Source: Chiloscyllium plagiosum
Lineage: Eukaryota
Assembly (NCBI RefSeq): GCF_004010195.1
Contig: NC_057729.1
Location: 56,814,792-56,878,791, forward strand
Direction: 5' to 3'
DNA length: 64,000 bases
This document shows positions 12,704 through 51,396 of the stretch, piece after piece. Each line of letters opens with the position of its first letter. Position 1 is the stretch's first letter. The notes under the pieces are model-generated. The model worked only from the letters and a program-made list of their open reading frames with translations. It had not been told where the DNA came from and searched no databases. The translations under genes and the position numbers were made by a program.

Positions 12704-12911
12704 AGGCGGAAGTGGGTACTGCAGATGCTGGAGTCACGATTAGAATAGTACTGGAAAAGCACAGCAGGTCAGGCAGCATCCGAGGAGCAGGAACATCGAC
12801 GTTTCGGGCAAAAGCCTCATTCCTGATGAAGGGCTTTTGCCCAAAACGTTGATTTTCCTGCTCCTCGGATGCTGCCTGACCTGCTGTGCTTTTCTAGCAC
12901 CATTCTAGTCC
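12704..12911. mobile_element. Penelope-like inverted-terminus insertion with hammerhead motif (family B)
   Basis: About 78-bp inverted arms (about 12739-12816 and 12832-12910); 13-bp TSD ATACTACACACCT (12691-12703, 12912-12924); core CTGATGAAGGGCTTTTGCCC(A)AAACGTT. Confidence 0.85.
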
Positions 12912-13311
12912 ATACTACACACCTCCCAATAGCCAGCCAGAGATAGAGGAATAGATTTATAATAGATCATGGAAAGATATAAAACAACACAGTTGTTGTA
13001 GTGGGTGATTTTAACTTCCACCAACGTTGACTTGGACTCCATTAGTGCCAGGGGATTAGATGGGGCAGAATTTGTTAGATGCATCCAGGAGGATTTCTGG
13101 AATCAATATGTAGATAGTCTAACTAGGGAAGGACCATGCTAGACATTGTATTGGGGAATGATCCTGTCCAGGTGATTGTAGTTTAGCAGAGAAGCATTTT
13201 GGGAACAGTGATCGTAATTCCATAAATTGTAAGAGAGTTATGGATAAGGATAAGATTGGTCCTTGGGTGAAACTGCTAAACGAGGGGACAGCAAATTACA
13301 ACAGTATTAGG

Positions 13312-15304: not shown

Positions 15305-15455
15305 GTGGAGTTGAAAAATGTGGTGCTGGAAAAACACAGCAGGCCAGGCAGCATCCGAGGAGCAGGAGAATCGACGTTTCGGGCATAAACCCTTCTTCAG
15401 GAATGAGGCTGGTGTGCCAAGCGGGCTGAGATAAAAGGTAGGGGGGGAGGGAATT
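15305..15455 (-). mobile_element. Penelope-like terminus with intact minimal hammerhead core (family B)
   Basis: Minus strand from 15400 down to 15373: CTGAAGA-A-GGGT-TTAT-GCCC-GAAA-CG-TC. Confidence 0.75.
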
Positions 15456-30612: not shown

Positions 30613-30694
30613 AAATCAATCTCATCCAGTGCTGAGTTAAAGCTCAACAAGGCTGAACACATACTTCCTCGCTCTGTGAGCTGCTCACGCCACA

Positions 30695-31777
30695 ATGAAT
30701 ACCGAAACCAGGTCTCCAAGACCAGCCAGTAAAGCCATCAAGAAATTCAGGTGCGTCTCCCTGGTGAACAGTTTGGCCAAAAACTGGCAGAAATGGGCAA
30801 ATGAGCATTCGCTAAGACAGAAATCAGAGCCTCAAGGCTGGCTCCCTGAAGGTTTTAAAGATGATGACCCTGTCAAGGAAAACAGAAGCTGGATCACCAA
30901 GCAGGAAAGGCCAGCAAAGGTTCTCCAAATTAAACCCGAAAGCACCCGGCCTGGCAGAAATGTGAATTCTAGCAAGGAGCTGAGTGGATCTCAAGGAACA
31001 GAACTGAGCATCAGAACTATTCCAGTCACTAAAACAGTAAATAACAGATCCAAGTCAGGGAGTAACGAGCTGGTGAGTTTCATGGCTGACCGTTTCAATC
31101 AGACAGAACCAGATGTGGCACCAAAACCATTTTTGGCCAACAGGTCACCGACAAGGAGGCGTTTGTGTCACAAGAAGGCATCGGAGATCTCACAAACTTG
31201 GGAGAAGTGGGAGAAGGAAGAGAAAGGCAGCGTGACTGGCGAAGACAGGAGCAGTGGAGGAGAGAAAAGGAAGGAGAAAGAACCTAAAAAGAAGGATGAT
31301 GCAGCTGACAGAGGGAAAAGGAAGAGATCAGTCCCAAATTCCCAAGTGCGCACGATGGAAGACCTGAAGAAGGCCTGGCTGAGATGGGCCGAGGATCACA
31401 TTGAGAGGCAAAAGACAAACCCTTTCAGTGATGAGTTTGACTACGATTATGCCAAAAACCTCCGATTGAAGAAGGGAGATCAGGGCTATGGACAGCCAAA
31501 GGAGGGAAGCAAGACGGCAGAGAGAGGCCAGCGAGCTCAGGAACACGTGTACAAGGAAATGCAGGAGATGTGCTTCATTATCAGGACCATGGGGATACTG
31601 GGAGTGGATGGGAAAACCAGGGTTACCTTTGGCAATCTGTTTGACAGATATGTTACTGTCTCAGATAAAGTCGTTGGGATTTTGATGAGGGCCAGGAAGC
31701 ATGGACTGCTAGACTTTCAGGGCGAAATGTTATGGAAGGGAGAGCACGATGATGTCGTTATTACACTTAATGAATGA
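30695..31777 (+). CDS. ABRA-like: Actin-binding Rho-activating protein-like (STARS/MS1 family), single exon, 360 aa
   Basis: Uninterrupted ORF with Kozak ACAATG. N-terminal SLAKNWQKWANEH..RQ..EP, RSPTRRR motif, QKTNPFSDEFDY, KGDQGYGQPKEGSKTAERG, and C-terminal Costars domain VTFGNLFDRYVTVSDKVVGILMRARKHGLLDFQGEMLWKGEHDDVVITL. Confidence 0.93.
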   Translation: MNTETRSPRPASKAIKKFRCVSLVNSLAKNWQKWANEHSLRQKSEPQGWLPEGFKDDDPVKENRSWITKQERPAKVLQIKPESTRPGRNVNSSKELSGSQGTELSIRTIPVTKTVNNRSKSGSNELVSFMADRFNQTEPDVAPKPFLANRSPTRRRLCHKKASEISQTWEKWEKEEKGSVTGEDRSSGGEKRKEKEPKKKDDAADRGKRKRSVPNSQVRTMEDLKKAWLRWAEDHIERQKTNPFSDEFDYDYAKNLRLKKGDQGYGQPKEGSKTAERGQRAQEHVYKEMQEMCFIIRTMGILGVDGKTRVTFGNLFDRYVTVSDKVVGILMRARKHGLLDFQGEMLWKGEHDDVVITLNE

Positions 31778-35421: not shown

Positions 35422-36544
35422 GAAGAGTTTAAAATTGATAAGAAAGAGTCAAATAAGAAGAAGTTTGTATTCACCAGAACTTGGAAGATGAAGTCTACTC
35501 TGCCAGGGACATGACTCCATATATGCTGAGTTTCTCCAGTACTTTCTGTTTTCCTTACACAAAAGATATATATGATTAGGTTTGTCAGCACACACATTTC
35601 CTGGTTTGGTCTAACAAGACTGCATGACTCTATGACACGTAAATATCATTCCAGGGGCTTGGGTGTTAATGAGTATTCATAACATACAAACAAATGCAAA
35701 AGATGTTCCTGACAGGTCAGCAAAGTTGATTTGCCTGGAATATTCTGAGAATTTAATAGAAAAATTTTAAGCTGCCATGGGGAAACTGGATTCTTCCCTC
35801 CTGACCAATTAGATTCTCCTGCCTGACCTTCTAAATGCTCCAGATATTCTGTCAGGCAAGAAGATTCCATGCTTTGATTTTTTAATGAGGATTAGTACAA
35901 GTGTAAAAACCCTCATCAATATAAACATCACAAATAGTTTTCCGCAAGACAATTTATTTCATTTTACTCCAGCTTGCTGTACTTTTTTTAAGATAAACAT
36001 CACCTTTGAAAGGTGAAATATTATGTTACGAGCACTGTAAATGTTGGATGAATGTCATGACCTGCAAGAAGCAAGAGAATCATCATTATGGGTTAAATTT
36101 TCTGAGCCCATGATGTACTTGGGAATTTTGTGCATGCAATGAGGTTTTCACATAATATTTAGATCCATGTGTGAAAGAAAGCAAACATATCCATTAAAAA
36201 ATGTCAGAATGTACTGACCATTCTGCTCTGGCATTTTTCTCCATTGCTCCTTTTAGCCATCCACACCTTCTATCCACACACATTCCTGATTCATTTTTCC
36301 TAAATTCCCATACCACTGTATCTCTTCCTGAATCCTCATATTCTCCTCTCCTGCCCAAATCTACCCCAAGTGCCAACATACAATTATCCTATACAAAAAA
36401 AGCCAAACAACTGCAGATGCTGGAAATAGAAATAAAATGGAAATTGTCGGAGGAAAAACAGCAGGTCTAGCAGCATAAGAGAAAGCATAGTTAACATTTC
36501 ACGTCCAGTGACCTTTCTTCAGAACGTTTTGTTTTTTACAATAA

Positions 36545-38060: not shown

Positions 38061-38300
38061 GGAGAAGCCGAGCAGTTGTGGCCGTATCTGTAAAGGAATT
38101 AAAAACGGAGTTAATGTTTCGGGTCCAGTCAGCCTTCCTCAGAACTGCCCTTCAATAAGGCTATGACTTCCAGCTCTGAGGAAGGGTCACTACACCTGAA
38201 ACATTAACTCTGATTTCTCTACACAGATGCTGCCAGACCTACTGAGCTCTTCCAGCAACCTCTGTTTATGTCTCAGGTTTACAGCATCCGCACTTCTTTG
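38061..38300. mobile_element. Older Penelope-like inverted-terminus element with two degenerate hammerheads (family C)
   Basis: Arms at about 38061-38147 and 38171-38255; plus-strand core CTGAGGA-A-GGGTC-ACTA-CACCT-GAAA-CATT at 38176-38205. Confidence 0.7.
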
Positions 38301-41722: not shown

Positions 41723-41864
41723 GGAGAAAGTGAGGACTGCAGATGCTGGAGATCAGAGCTGAAAGATTCTTCAGATTTCTGAAGAAGGACTTATGCCCGA
41801 AACGTCAATTCTCCTGTTCCTTGGATGCTGCCTGACCTGCGTTTTTCCAGCAACACATTTTCAG
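41723..41864. mobile_element. Penelope-like inverted-terminus insertion with hammerhead motif (family B)
   Basis: 14-bp TSD TAACAACCCTATCA (41709-41722, 41865-41878); plus-strand CTGAAGA-A-GGAC-TTAT-GCCC-GAAA-CG-TC at about 41779-41806. Confidence 0.85.
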
Positions 41865-48292: not shown

Positions 48293-48458
48293 TGAGTTGA
48301 AAACTTATCCAGAGGAAATAACCAACGTCTGGAAGAGTGTCATTATAGCTGCGTGTGTTGGAATGTTGTACGGTGGTATTCCTGCTGCAAGGCATGCTAA
48401 AATCCGTTACATCGAGCACAGTCAAGCTGAGTTATACAAAAATCGCTTGGAGGCTGTG
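48293..48458 (+). CDS. TIMMDC1: TIMMDC1 coding exon 2 (166 bp)
   Basis: GMLYGGIPAARHAKIRYIEHSQAELYKNRLEAV; AG/GT boundaries in frame with both neighbours. Confidence 0.95.
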
Positions 48459-48510
48459 GTGAGTTTGAAAGATTTAAGTTATGCAAGAAATCAGGAGGTT
48501 ACTCTTTCGA

Positions 48511-48800
48511 GTAGAATTGAATCCCTACATTGTGGAAACAGGCCCATCGGCCCAACAAGTCCACACTGACCCTCCGAAAGTAACCAATCCGGACCCATTC
48601 CCCTACCCTTTTTTTTTCCCCTATATTTACCCCGACTAATGCACTTAACCTACACATCGCTGAACACTATAGGGCAATTTAGCATAGCCAATTCACCTAA
48701 CCTATACATTTTTGGATTGTGGGAGGAAACTGGAGCACCCGTAGGAAACCCACACAGACACTGGGAAAATGTGCAAACTCCATACAGATAGTCGCCCAAG
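48511..48800 (-). mobile_element. HE1/V-SINE-type SINE, 5'-truncated
   Basis: V domain and tail in reverse orientation. Confidence 0.85.
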
Positions 48801-49931
48801 ACTAACTCTTTCAGAACTCTTTTTCAGAAAGAATTATCCTGCTAAGGAGAGGAGGGAAACTGATAATGACAAAGCAGGCTTAGTGAGTCTGAAAGACTTC
48901 TTTTCAGATATGATATTTGGTGAAGCTCAAGTGTGAAGTGAAATGAAGTAGGTGGCCCACAAGCCAGGATTCCTAGCAGATTTGATGTTATTGCACAGCT
49001 TTGGGAAGACAATGCACCTCTCCTTCTTCTCTCCGATGAGAAGCAGTAGTGGGAAAGATACCTTCCAGAGGCCCGTCACATCTGCAGCAGTTCTTTGTGA
49101 AAGCTGTCTGCTTACTACTTTTTCTATATTTTTTCATAAAACGTTAGTTATTTCACTTTAAGGCATTATGGATTCTATTCTCAACACTGAAATGGGACTA
49201 AGAAACCTCTGCATTTGAAGTAGAATAAATCTCCTATCCCTCTTTGAGCCATAGTCTTTCCTGCTCCACAGACCACCTAGTCTAAAAAAAACTATTTTTA
49301 ATCAACCTGTTCAGGGATGCAATGACACACTTTTGGAGCAGGTAGGACTTGAACTAAGGCCTACTTTCTCAGAGGCAAAGGCACTACCACTGCAGTGCAA
49401 TAGCCAGCCATCTCATCTTAGCTTACCATTCTCGCAACTTACACTTTAATTTCCCTTTATTCCCAACAACCCTCACCAGTGATGTACCCACAGAGCTGAG
49501 TGTCTTGACCCTCACTGTGGGTCATACTTGGGTTTCAAATTCATAAGTGGAAATAATAATCTCAAAGCCATTGAGCTTTATGGAGAAAACAACATCTCAA
49601 GACTTCCTCTACCTATCCTGATCAGCATGCAAGCAGATGGAACAATCTACTTTATTTCATAGTGAGCAAGGACAAACCTTCTCAAAGACAATAAAGCATT
49701 AGCTATAAATATTGGCCTAGCTAATGATGGCCATATCCAGAATCTAAGGTCGGATGAAAAGATGGATATTCTACCTTTTTGAGATGTATTTATATGATCC
49801 TCTACTCTAAACCTGACCATTTATGGTGCATTTATTTTCTGTGATTCGGAGATGCCGGTGTTGGACTGGGGTGTACAAAGTTAAAAATCACACAACACCA
49901 GGTTATAGTCCAACAGGTTTAATTGGAAGCA

Positions 49932-49966
49932 CACTAGCTTTCGGAGCGACGCTCCTTCATCAGGTG
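49932..49966 (-). ncRNA. Minimal type I hammerhead ribozyme motif (antisense copy)
   Basis: Minus strand CAC-CTGATGA-A-GGAGC-GTC-GCTCC-GAAA-GC-TA|GTG. Confidence 0.75.
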
Positions 49967-49971
49967 ATTGT

Positions 49972-50006
49972 CACCTGATGAAGGAGCATCGCTCCGAAAG
50001 CTAGTG
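49972..50006 (+). ncRNA. Minimal type I hammerhead ribozyme motif (sense to TIMMDC1)
   Basis: CAC-CTGATGA-A-GGAGC-ATC-GCTCC-GAAA-GC-TA|GTG: intact core, 5-bp helix II, CAC/GTG helix I, palindromic AGCT helix III; predicted cleavage after 50003. Confidence 0.75.
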
Positions 50007-51396
50007 TGCTTCCAATTAAACCTGTTGGACTATAACCTGGTGTTGTGTGATTTTTAACTTTATTTTCTGTGACTGACTAGTCACTCAACCTGCTGTTGGT
50101 TTCAAATTCCTCTACACAATTTGCCAGATGTCATTTTTTAGTATCACCAATAATTTTTGCGGACATTCCTTTTGTTTCTACACCCAAGCCATTCATATAA
50201 AATACACCCTTTCCCAATCCAAAGAAAAATTAATTCTCCCTTTTTCCTGCAAGTCCTCTCTCCATCTACATTTGCACTCTGTTTAATTACATTTGTACAG
50301 TTACTGCTGATAGAGTCCAAATCTGGCACAGAGATCTGTTTAGGAAAATCATGGAGACATTTATAGATATAATACACTACACCACTGCAAGTTACTATTT
50401 CAAGCATGTTCGGATCATGAGAATATCACAAGTTCAACACTGCTGACCTCCAGAGCAGTAACATACTGAATAATCTTCGTCTGAGAATCTGTGTTTTCAT
50501 TCAGTTCAGAAAACAGTCCAATTATTCTTCAAATCCAGAAGTTTTCCCTGTTTTTATTTATTTCCAAACGTTTGGCAGAGCCCACCACAGCTCACATCAC
50601 ACATAGACTGAGAGATTATATTGGCTGAAGGGTCATAACTTTTGCCACTTGTATTCTTCCAAGTGCTGGGCTTGGCGGAGCTGACACTGTTTGCTTTTCA
50701 ATGATCCACCCATAGTAGAGTGAGGAATCCAGCATTCTATATGAGTATAATCCTGTTCCCTGGATGCTGCCTGACCTGCTGTGCTTTTCCAGCAACACAT
50801 TTTCAGCTGTAATGGGAATATGGCTGCTTTGTAACCTTACACGAAGTAACAGGATGAAAAGGTTTTCCTTTACTTAAGATCTACTTGAAAAAAGATAACT
50901 GTTAGTTATATTTCCCATTATTCTAGTCCTGTCTGTGGCATAGGTCCCAATATGACCCTGGATTTCAGAAAGACCGTACTATAGAGGAAAAGTAAATGCT
51001 GTATATCCAAGTGATCTCATGGAGGGGCAAGGGGAGAAGGTGTAGGAAAATTAATTTGAATACAGTTTCTCTACTCACACCTGAGTTATAGTTTTCAACT
51101 GTGGAACACTGACCAGTTTGAGTAACTGTGTAGGAGTAAATTACTGCTACTCCTGTACGGAATCTGTACTGAAAACAAAAAATGCTGGAGAACACAGTGG
51201 ATCAGGCAGCATCCATTGAGAGAAACCAAGCTAACGTTTCGAGTCATCTAGATTCTAAACATTAACTTGCTTTCTCTCCATGAATGCTACCTGACCCATT
51301 GTGATCTCCAGCATTTATTTTGTTTTGAGTAACCTATGTCACTGAGCATCTCTGATTCAGCTCTGATGCATCATTGCTGGCTTTTTGCTCTATTAG

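Follow-up and report, generated by a model that had tools for sequence, protein, structure and literature searches.

A palindromic insert in a shark TIMMDC1 intron as two head-to-head ends of a hammerhead-bearing Penelope-like element, probably laid down by dual priming

The window analysed here is a stretch of 64,000 nucleotides from Chiloscyllium plagiosum (assembly GCF_004010195.1, contig NC_057729.1, positions 56,814,792 to 56,878,791), and coordinates count from its first letter. It carries a short palindromic insert in an intron of TIMMDC1, where a sequence-only reading had placed it: the 48303-48458 exon matches a TIMMDC1-like protein of C. plagiosum with 100% identity, as well as five other TIMMDC1 proteins from cartilaginous fishes, and the flanking exons lie on the + strand on either side of the insert, with about 1.4 kb between the insert and each splice site. 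A Tim17 family search gave no match to the TIMMDC1 gene of the window, and the exon peptides found no useful match in Pfam or PDB. The insert has no ORF, as that reading had described. Elsewhere in the window, a 365-aa open frame at 30680-31777 contains a Costars domain (E 1.7e-28) and is presumably ABRA/STARS-like, and a 142-aa open frame at 585-1013 may be a fragment of a retroviral envelope gene. An older inverted repeat (51172-51324, 81% complementary) shares the TIMMDC1 intron with the insert, about 70 nt ahead of the next exon; by eye it is like other Penelope-type families, and it is without clear hammerhead cores.

The insert consists of two inverted arms of 91 nt each (49877-49967 and 49971-50061), 99% complementary and separated by a 3-nt gap, so that the palindrome with one mismatch and a 3-nt loop is present as first claimed. 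The single mismatch, at 49988, falls in loop II on a position that is a CpG in the element family. Folding of the segment 49820-50085 gives -189.8 kcal/mol for the hairpin (z -25), and none of 200 shuffles folds equally well. The 14-bp direct repeat at its borders is exact, as had been reported, but overlaps the element by 3 nt at both ends; we regard it as a probable target-site duplication, given the repeat itself and the like pattern in other copies. The element is longer than first described: the 35 nt past the left arm, which continue the minus-strand arm, are element sequence as well and had been missed. The features are collected in Table 1.

Table 1. Features of the insert and its intron (window coordinates; family positions are numbered from +1, the presumed RNA start)
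Feature	Position	Strand	Remark
Left copy of the 14-bp putative target-site duplication	49831..49844	.	last 3 nt also match the end of the element's tail
35-nt "tail"	49842..49876	-	family positions +96 to +130; stops just before the parent ORF start codon; long arm only
Long arm proper	49877..49972	-	family positions -1(G)/+1 to +95
Long-arm minimal type I hammerhead	49932..49966	-	predicted cut 49935/49934
Head-to-head junction	49968..49972	.	49971-49972 is a 2-nt arm overlap when the -1 G is included
Short arm	49971..50061	+	family positions +5 to +95
Short-arm minimal type I hammerhead	49972..50006	+	predicted cut 50003/50004
Right copy of the putative target-site duplication	50059..50072	.	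first 3 nt shared with the element
TIMMDC1 intron with the insert	48459..51396	+	separates the exons for about aa 83-140 and aa 141-170; approximate limits

Each arm carries an intact hammerhead core, in agreement with the sequence-only reading (strings at 49975-49999 on the + strand and 49963-49939 on the - strand), and the two cores are 11 nt apart. The motifs have a 3-bp helix I, the core, an extra A, a 5-bp helix II and a loopless, palindromic helix III; the core, the extra nucleotide, G10.1-C11.1, the palindromic 15.2-16.2 pair, U16.1-H17 and the short helix I together identify them as minimal type I hammerheads of the kind found in Penelope-like elements (PLEs), as had been proposed. According to the accessible part of PMC4209133, metazoan PLE hammerheads have the same core, an extra nucleotide listed after A9, G10.1-C11.1, a palindromic 15.2-16.2 pair and no loop III, and occur as opposite-strand pairs separated by 100-700 bp; single motifs are inactive and dimers of low activity. 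The motifs described here differ in belonging to a shark family and in the closeness of their cores.

A covariance-model search, the check suggested with the first reading, found no hammerhead: Rfam gave no match to the palindrome at the gathering score and no hammerhead among 13 matches up to E 10, which were microRNA hairpin models far under their cut-offs. The loopless form probably lies outside the Rfam models, and the miss has no bearing on a class defined by descriptor. A descriptor limited to the core and helix II, run on 543 kb (the window plus family loci), found 90 distinct motifs versus 0-2 in each of 10 shuffles. Features outside the descriptor covary between shark families: the 15.2-16.2 pair is GC in the window's family and CG in others (a comparison in which 12 of the 42 rows labelled "other" are diverged members of the window's family), and helix I reads CG/UA/AU or AU/UA/CG, with changes on both sides. 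The family also conserves the core as expected, the 35-nt hammerhead pattern having 8,048 exact matches in the genome and its control none. The window itself holds two older inverted repeats centred on other Penelope-type hammerhead motifs (12729-12919 and 38102-38216, 88 and 83% complementary) and further hammerhead-type motifs of other families at 15377-15400, 36497-36522 and 41779-41802.

In a + strand transcript the computed probability of the pair closing helix II is about 1e-14, and the antisense arm is predicted to out-compete the ribozyme fold, so that the ribozyme would not form; a co-fold of the two arms gave no interpretable dimer. The first reading had seen in this a self-silencing arrangement with the same architecture from either direction of transcription. 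The competition between arm and ribozyme is borne out by the computation, but a designed silencing role is not, and the two directions of transcription are not exactly equivalent, since the tail is on one arm only; cleavage at 50003 and ADAR or Dicer action on the stem, which that reading had raised, are predictions. The 91-bp, near-perfect stem expected in the pre-mRNA might also have been recruited for TIMMDC1 regulation, as an editing substrate, a small-RNA source or a switchable ribozyme, long double-stranded RNA being a general ADAR substrate. We consider such recruitment highly improbable: the insert is one of many alike and is far from the splice sites, editing, if present, would be no proof of selection, and a transcript in either direction holds a single sense copy of a ribozyme whose kind is reported to be slow and to need dimers or protein (PMC4209133 and PMC11167929, in the parts available). 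Because of the 1.4 kb to the splice sites and the many like inserts, the TIMMDC1 insert is most likely a neutral passenger.

The window insert is a pair of truncated terminal-repeat ends of a Penelope-like element, set head to head. In longer copies (L061 and L074) the module of hammerhead, leader and 35-nt extension runs directly into the start codon of an ORF that is decayed in both and has DKG and RT motifs, and in L061, L074 and L075 the module recurs as a direct repeat 2.5-3.8 kb away. RVT_1 was matched under the Pfam cut-off in the broken ORF pieces (E 0.004 and 2e-4) and over it in three shark homologues. The endonuclease part, present in L075 and the homologues, contains a GIY-YIG-type motif with two internal cysteines that was read by eye; a local Pfam search did not recognise a GIY-YIG endonuclease in the element pieces, and PDB searches with the PLE proteins returned nothing significant. 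DKG, YIDD, VYLI..C..C..WYIG and two histidines could be aligned with the homologues, which have a C-x4-C-xx-C linker whose first Cys is changed in L075. In the part of PMC8557442 available, a CX2-5CxxC zinc finger within the linker that joins RT to endonuclease is a trait of Neptune and Nematis, and from this linker and the motifs read by eye the parent appears to be of the Neptune/Nematis type. No intact full-length parent was seen, the copies with the RT part (L061, L074) and with the endonuclease part (L075) being decayed or gapped. Pieces of the element ORF are also contained in the shark proteins P0019, P0027, P0035 and P0038-P0041, under names such as NOXP20-like, cytochrome P450, septin 5a, PPP1R12A-like and GPCR-domain; these are gene-model artefacts or exonised copies.

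With RT and endonuclease parts, direct pseudo-LTRs flanking the ORF, a tail at one end and a short, variable duplication, the shark element belongs to the endonuclease-bearing Penelope-like elements. As far as the accessible text of PMC3846280 and PMC8557442 goes, insertion units of this group can have a head-to-head inverted, 5'-truncated copy, a 30-40-bp tail at one end, a short target duplication and a TATA-like box in the terminal repeat; the shark arms, in contrast, are just 90-130 nt long and reach no further than the hammerhead's front edge.

To describe the family, we took 90 of the first 100 listed hammerhead matches, which all lie within 43 Mb of the start of a single contig and by selection have an intact hammerhead; six matches forming three adjacent pairs, one match inside L075 and the last three were left out. 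An adjacent inverted partner was found at 48 of the 90 loci, and after one duplicate was dropped 47 pairs were analysed. Forty of these combine a short arm (ending at about +92) with a tailed arm (about +130), three have two short arms, four are irregular and none has two tailed arms; duplications of at least 11 nt, with one mismatch allowed, border 38 of the 47. Both hammerhead cores are kept in 17 of the 47 head-to-head pairs, so a special status of the locus is not supported. Within the 40 short-and-tailed pairs, the stretch covered by one arm is nested in that of the other in 11, the two arms are within 2 nt in nine, and in 20 they are non-nested, each arm having sequence absent from the other. 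In addition, four inverted pairs (L033/L034, L050/L051, L054/L055 and L057/L058) are 1.1-1.8 kb apart and have longer arms; in L033 the arms are separated by about 650 bp of unrelated sequence, and in L055 one arm extends to the end of the ORF.

The exact central junction of the window copy recurs at 156 loci in the genome, and at least 40 copies of the whole unit have 97-100% identity (the best 40 of 948 candidates, selected for likeness). Both counts could point to the 214-bp palindrome as a mobile, non-autonomous unit, MITE-like or retrozyme-like, copied from a master hairpin. We consider this very unlikely and discarded the master-palindrome model: of 40 loci sampled from the 156 with this junction, 20 carry the tail on the G-ended arm, 19 carry it on the opposite arm and one has no tail. 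The junctions, moreover, vary widely in the unselected sample, rare variants are common to both arms within single copies, and copies do not share arm-specific variants. Tandem arrays of the retrozyme kind are lacking. Non-LTR retrozymes (bioRxiv 10.64898/2026.07.22.740005, as far as its available part shows) are likewise non-coding, hammerhead-bearing and PLE-derived, but they are head-to-tail tandems able to form ribozyme dimers, whereas here the pair is inverted and shows no sign of self-propagation; with no array at the locus and no head-to-tail tandem units, this identity was rejected. Since the tail can sit on either arm beside an identical junction, and given the architectures of the pairs, we conclude that the hairpin was rebuilt at each insertion and not copied from a master. 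Fifteen of the 40 same-junction loci have exact duplications of 12-17 bp under strict rules, and these 15 are 72% AT. The mean divergence between arms is 3.5% in 36 of the 40 same-junction copies (four were dropped for poor alignment), and the window copy, with one mismatch, at a CpG position, is among the younger ones; the insertion is thus young, as first supposed, in this relative sense.

A palindrome could also be built at each site by snap-back, in which the 3' end of a cDNA folds back and copies itself, or an antisense RNA primes itself; such self-priming was proposed for rotifer Penelope elements in the accessible part of PMC3846280. The window copy and the 11 nested pairs are of the form that snap-back would leave, and several junctions have short palindromic or repeated pieces. 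Simple snap-back does not suffice for half of the cases, however, because 20 of the 40 short-and-tailed pairs are non-nested. Moreover, in 19 of the 40 same-junction loci the arm that reaches furthest 5' is not the tailed one, which would need a return to RNA. Snap-back is therefore disfavoured as the sole route, and we consider it quite unlikely as the explanation of the family; on these counts two separately primed cDNAs are favoured over the self-priming of PMC3846280.

The 5' ends of the arms bear on the RNA that was copied. They fall at -6 to +8 in 52 of the 90 sampled loci, a range from whose far side (beyond +8) ends are removed by the motif selection, and upstream of -5 in 39 of the 90 by a separate count; those close to +1 scatter across about 14 nt. 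The parent copy has TATAAA about 30 nt upstream and a C at -1. Arms starting at +1 are preceded by G in 493 matches and by A or T in 222 (T at -2 left out). Among 100 listed matches of each kind, the parent's C at -2 is missing in 84 (G) and 34 (A or T), and 19 of the latter have A at -1; extrapolation gives about 10 G for each A, whereas the control position +37 has 26 G and 43 A of 69. In the 90-locus sample, G precedes seven of the eight +1 starts. Thirty G-preceded loci were inspected: 29 are truncations, eight are explicable by plain microhomology, one is unclear, and one (L089) is a parent-type copy with G. Starts at +4 in the 90-locus sample also often follow a G (4 of 7), and there may be several start sites. 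An extra G derived from the cap has been described at complete L1 insertions (PMC11702581, in the part available), and we infer a capped RNA start at about +1. The accessible text of PMC3846280 places TATA/Inr elements in the Penelope-like terminal repeat, along with an inverted pLTR, one tail and a TSD; that of PMC2377424 describes the Drosophila Penelope promoter as internal and TATA-less, which, like the spread of the 5' ends, counts against such a start.

The G need not come from a cap. A source copy with G at -1, of which L089 is an example, an untemplated base added by the RT, or a halt of the RT at the folded ribozyme, in keeping with 5' ends at the 5' edge of helix I, might each account for it. 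We judge these sources unlikely, though less so than the other alternatives: C is at -1 in all other inspected copies with upstream sequence, two sequence variants of the +1 region both have G-preceded starts, and since an RT travels 3' to 5', a structure should halt it on the 3' side and not past it. Insertion of self-cleaved RNA was rejected as well. Starts at the cut site (+38) number 118 matches versus 61 at the control position +34, and in an inspection that covered the +38 set alone, about seven of 15 among the 118 are small indels or internal deletions; none of the 48 partner arms starts at +36 to +40. There is thus no clear peak at +38, although a small excess is possible, and this is consistent with uncleaved RNA as the template.

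We therefore favour, with a probability of roughly three in four, the view that a Neptune/Nematis-type Penelope-like retrotransposon was inserted here dead on arrival, dual priming having left two terminal modules head to head. The insert holds the terminal module (hammerhead, 5' leader, tail) twice, with ends at +130 and about +92, between target duplications, and such head-to-head pairs arise independently at many sites. The element's endonuclease would make a staggered cut at the target, and each target 3' end would prime its own cDNA on element RNA, one at each of two RT start sites; the 3-nt overlap of target and element at both ends of the window insert may reflect primer-template pairing. 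Priming on the 5' copy of the module would bring both cDNAs to the RNA 5' end within 90-130 nt, so that with a capped start at +1 short run-off cDNAs would result. One cDNA would often copy the cap, leaving the extra G, and the cDNA ends would be joined by microhomology and then filled in. The template RNA would not have self-cleaved, because the whole hammerhead is still present. In the TIMMDC1 pre-mRNA the arms would pair, the ribozyme would remain unfolded and the hairpin would be spliced out; no selected function of the hairpin is necessary. The window locus alone is indecisive for the mechanism, because its arms are nested and the G at -1 may also be taken for part of the partner arm.

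Dual priming accords with the biochemistry of PMC11167929, in which the PLE protein cuts and extends both strands, two RT start sites bound the tail, a dimer is predicted and uncleaved RNA is the main substrate. The element of that study, the Anolis Poseidon PAc, likewise has two preferred 3' ends bounding the tail, an uncleaved RNA template and AT-rich targets, but it belongs to another clade: the shark element has the linker zinc finger, and its tail ends at the start codon, whereas that of PAc lies more than 100 nt inside the ORF. The start sites showed no strand preference in vitro, which leaves the use of one start site of each kind per insertion unexplained. Twin priming of LINE-1 (PMC11702581, in the part available) also involves a second cDNA from the other target strand, joining by microhomology and an extra G at complete 5' ends; the L1 cDNAs cover different parts of the RNA, whereas here they would cover the same part, which gives a palindrome.

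Inverted ends, a single tail, duplications and minimal hammerheads are already published for Penelope-like elements. A limited literature search, outside which most subscription journals lay, found no paper on twin priming or a cap-derived G in Penelope elements, nor the non-nesting test or the cap-G signal. The main value of the locus is as a record of how Penelope-like elements copy themselves, and the family statistics bear on how these elements make inverted ends with a one-sided tail and on the purpose of the hammerhead, and they make predictions that apply directly to CAGE and to the in vitro system already in use. A broader proposal, which we hold to be about evenly balanced, is that the short shark hairpins, in their thousands, preserve a fossil read-out of Penelope transposition in which every insertion comprises two cDNAs, one per cut strand and RT start site, from a capped, uncleaved polymerase II transcript with the hammerhead as its first 40 nt. 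If so, the origin of head-to-head Penelope insertions and of the one-sided tail would be settled, contrary to the published self-priming, and the ribozyme would sit at the mRNA's extreme 5' end, its cleavage there taking off the cap. Hairpins of this kind may, in addition, contribute a large amount of intronic double-stranded RNA in sharks.
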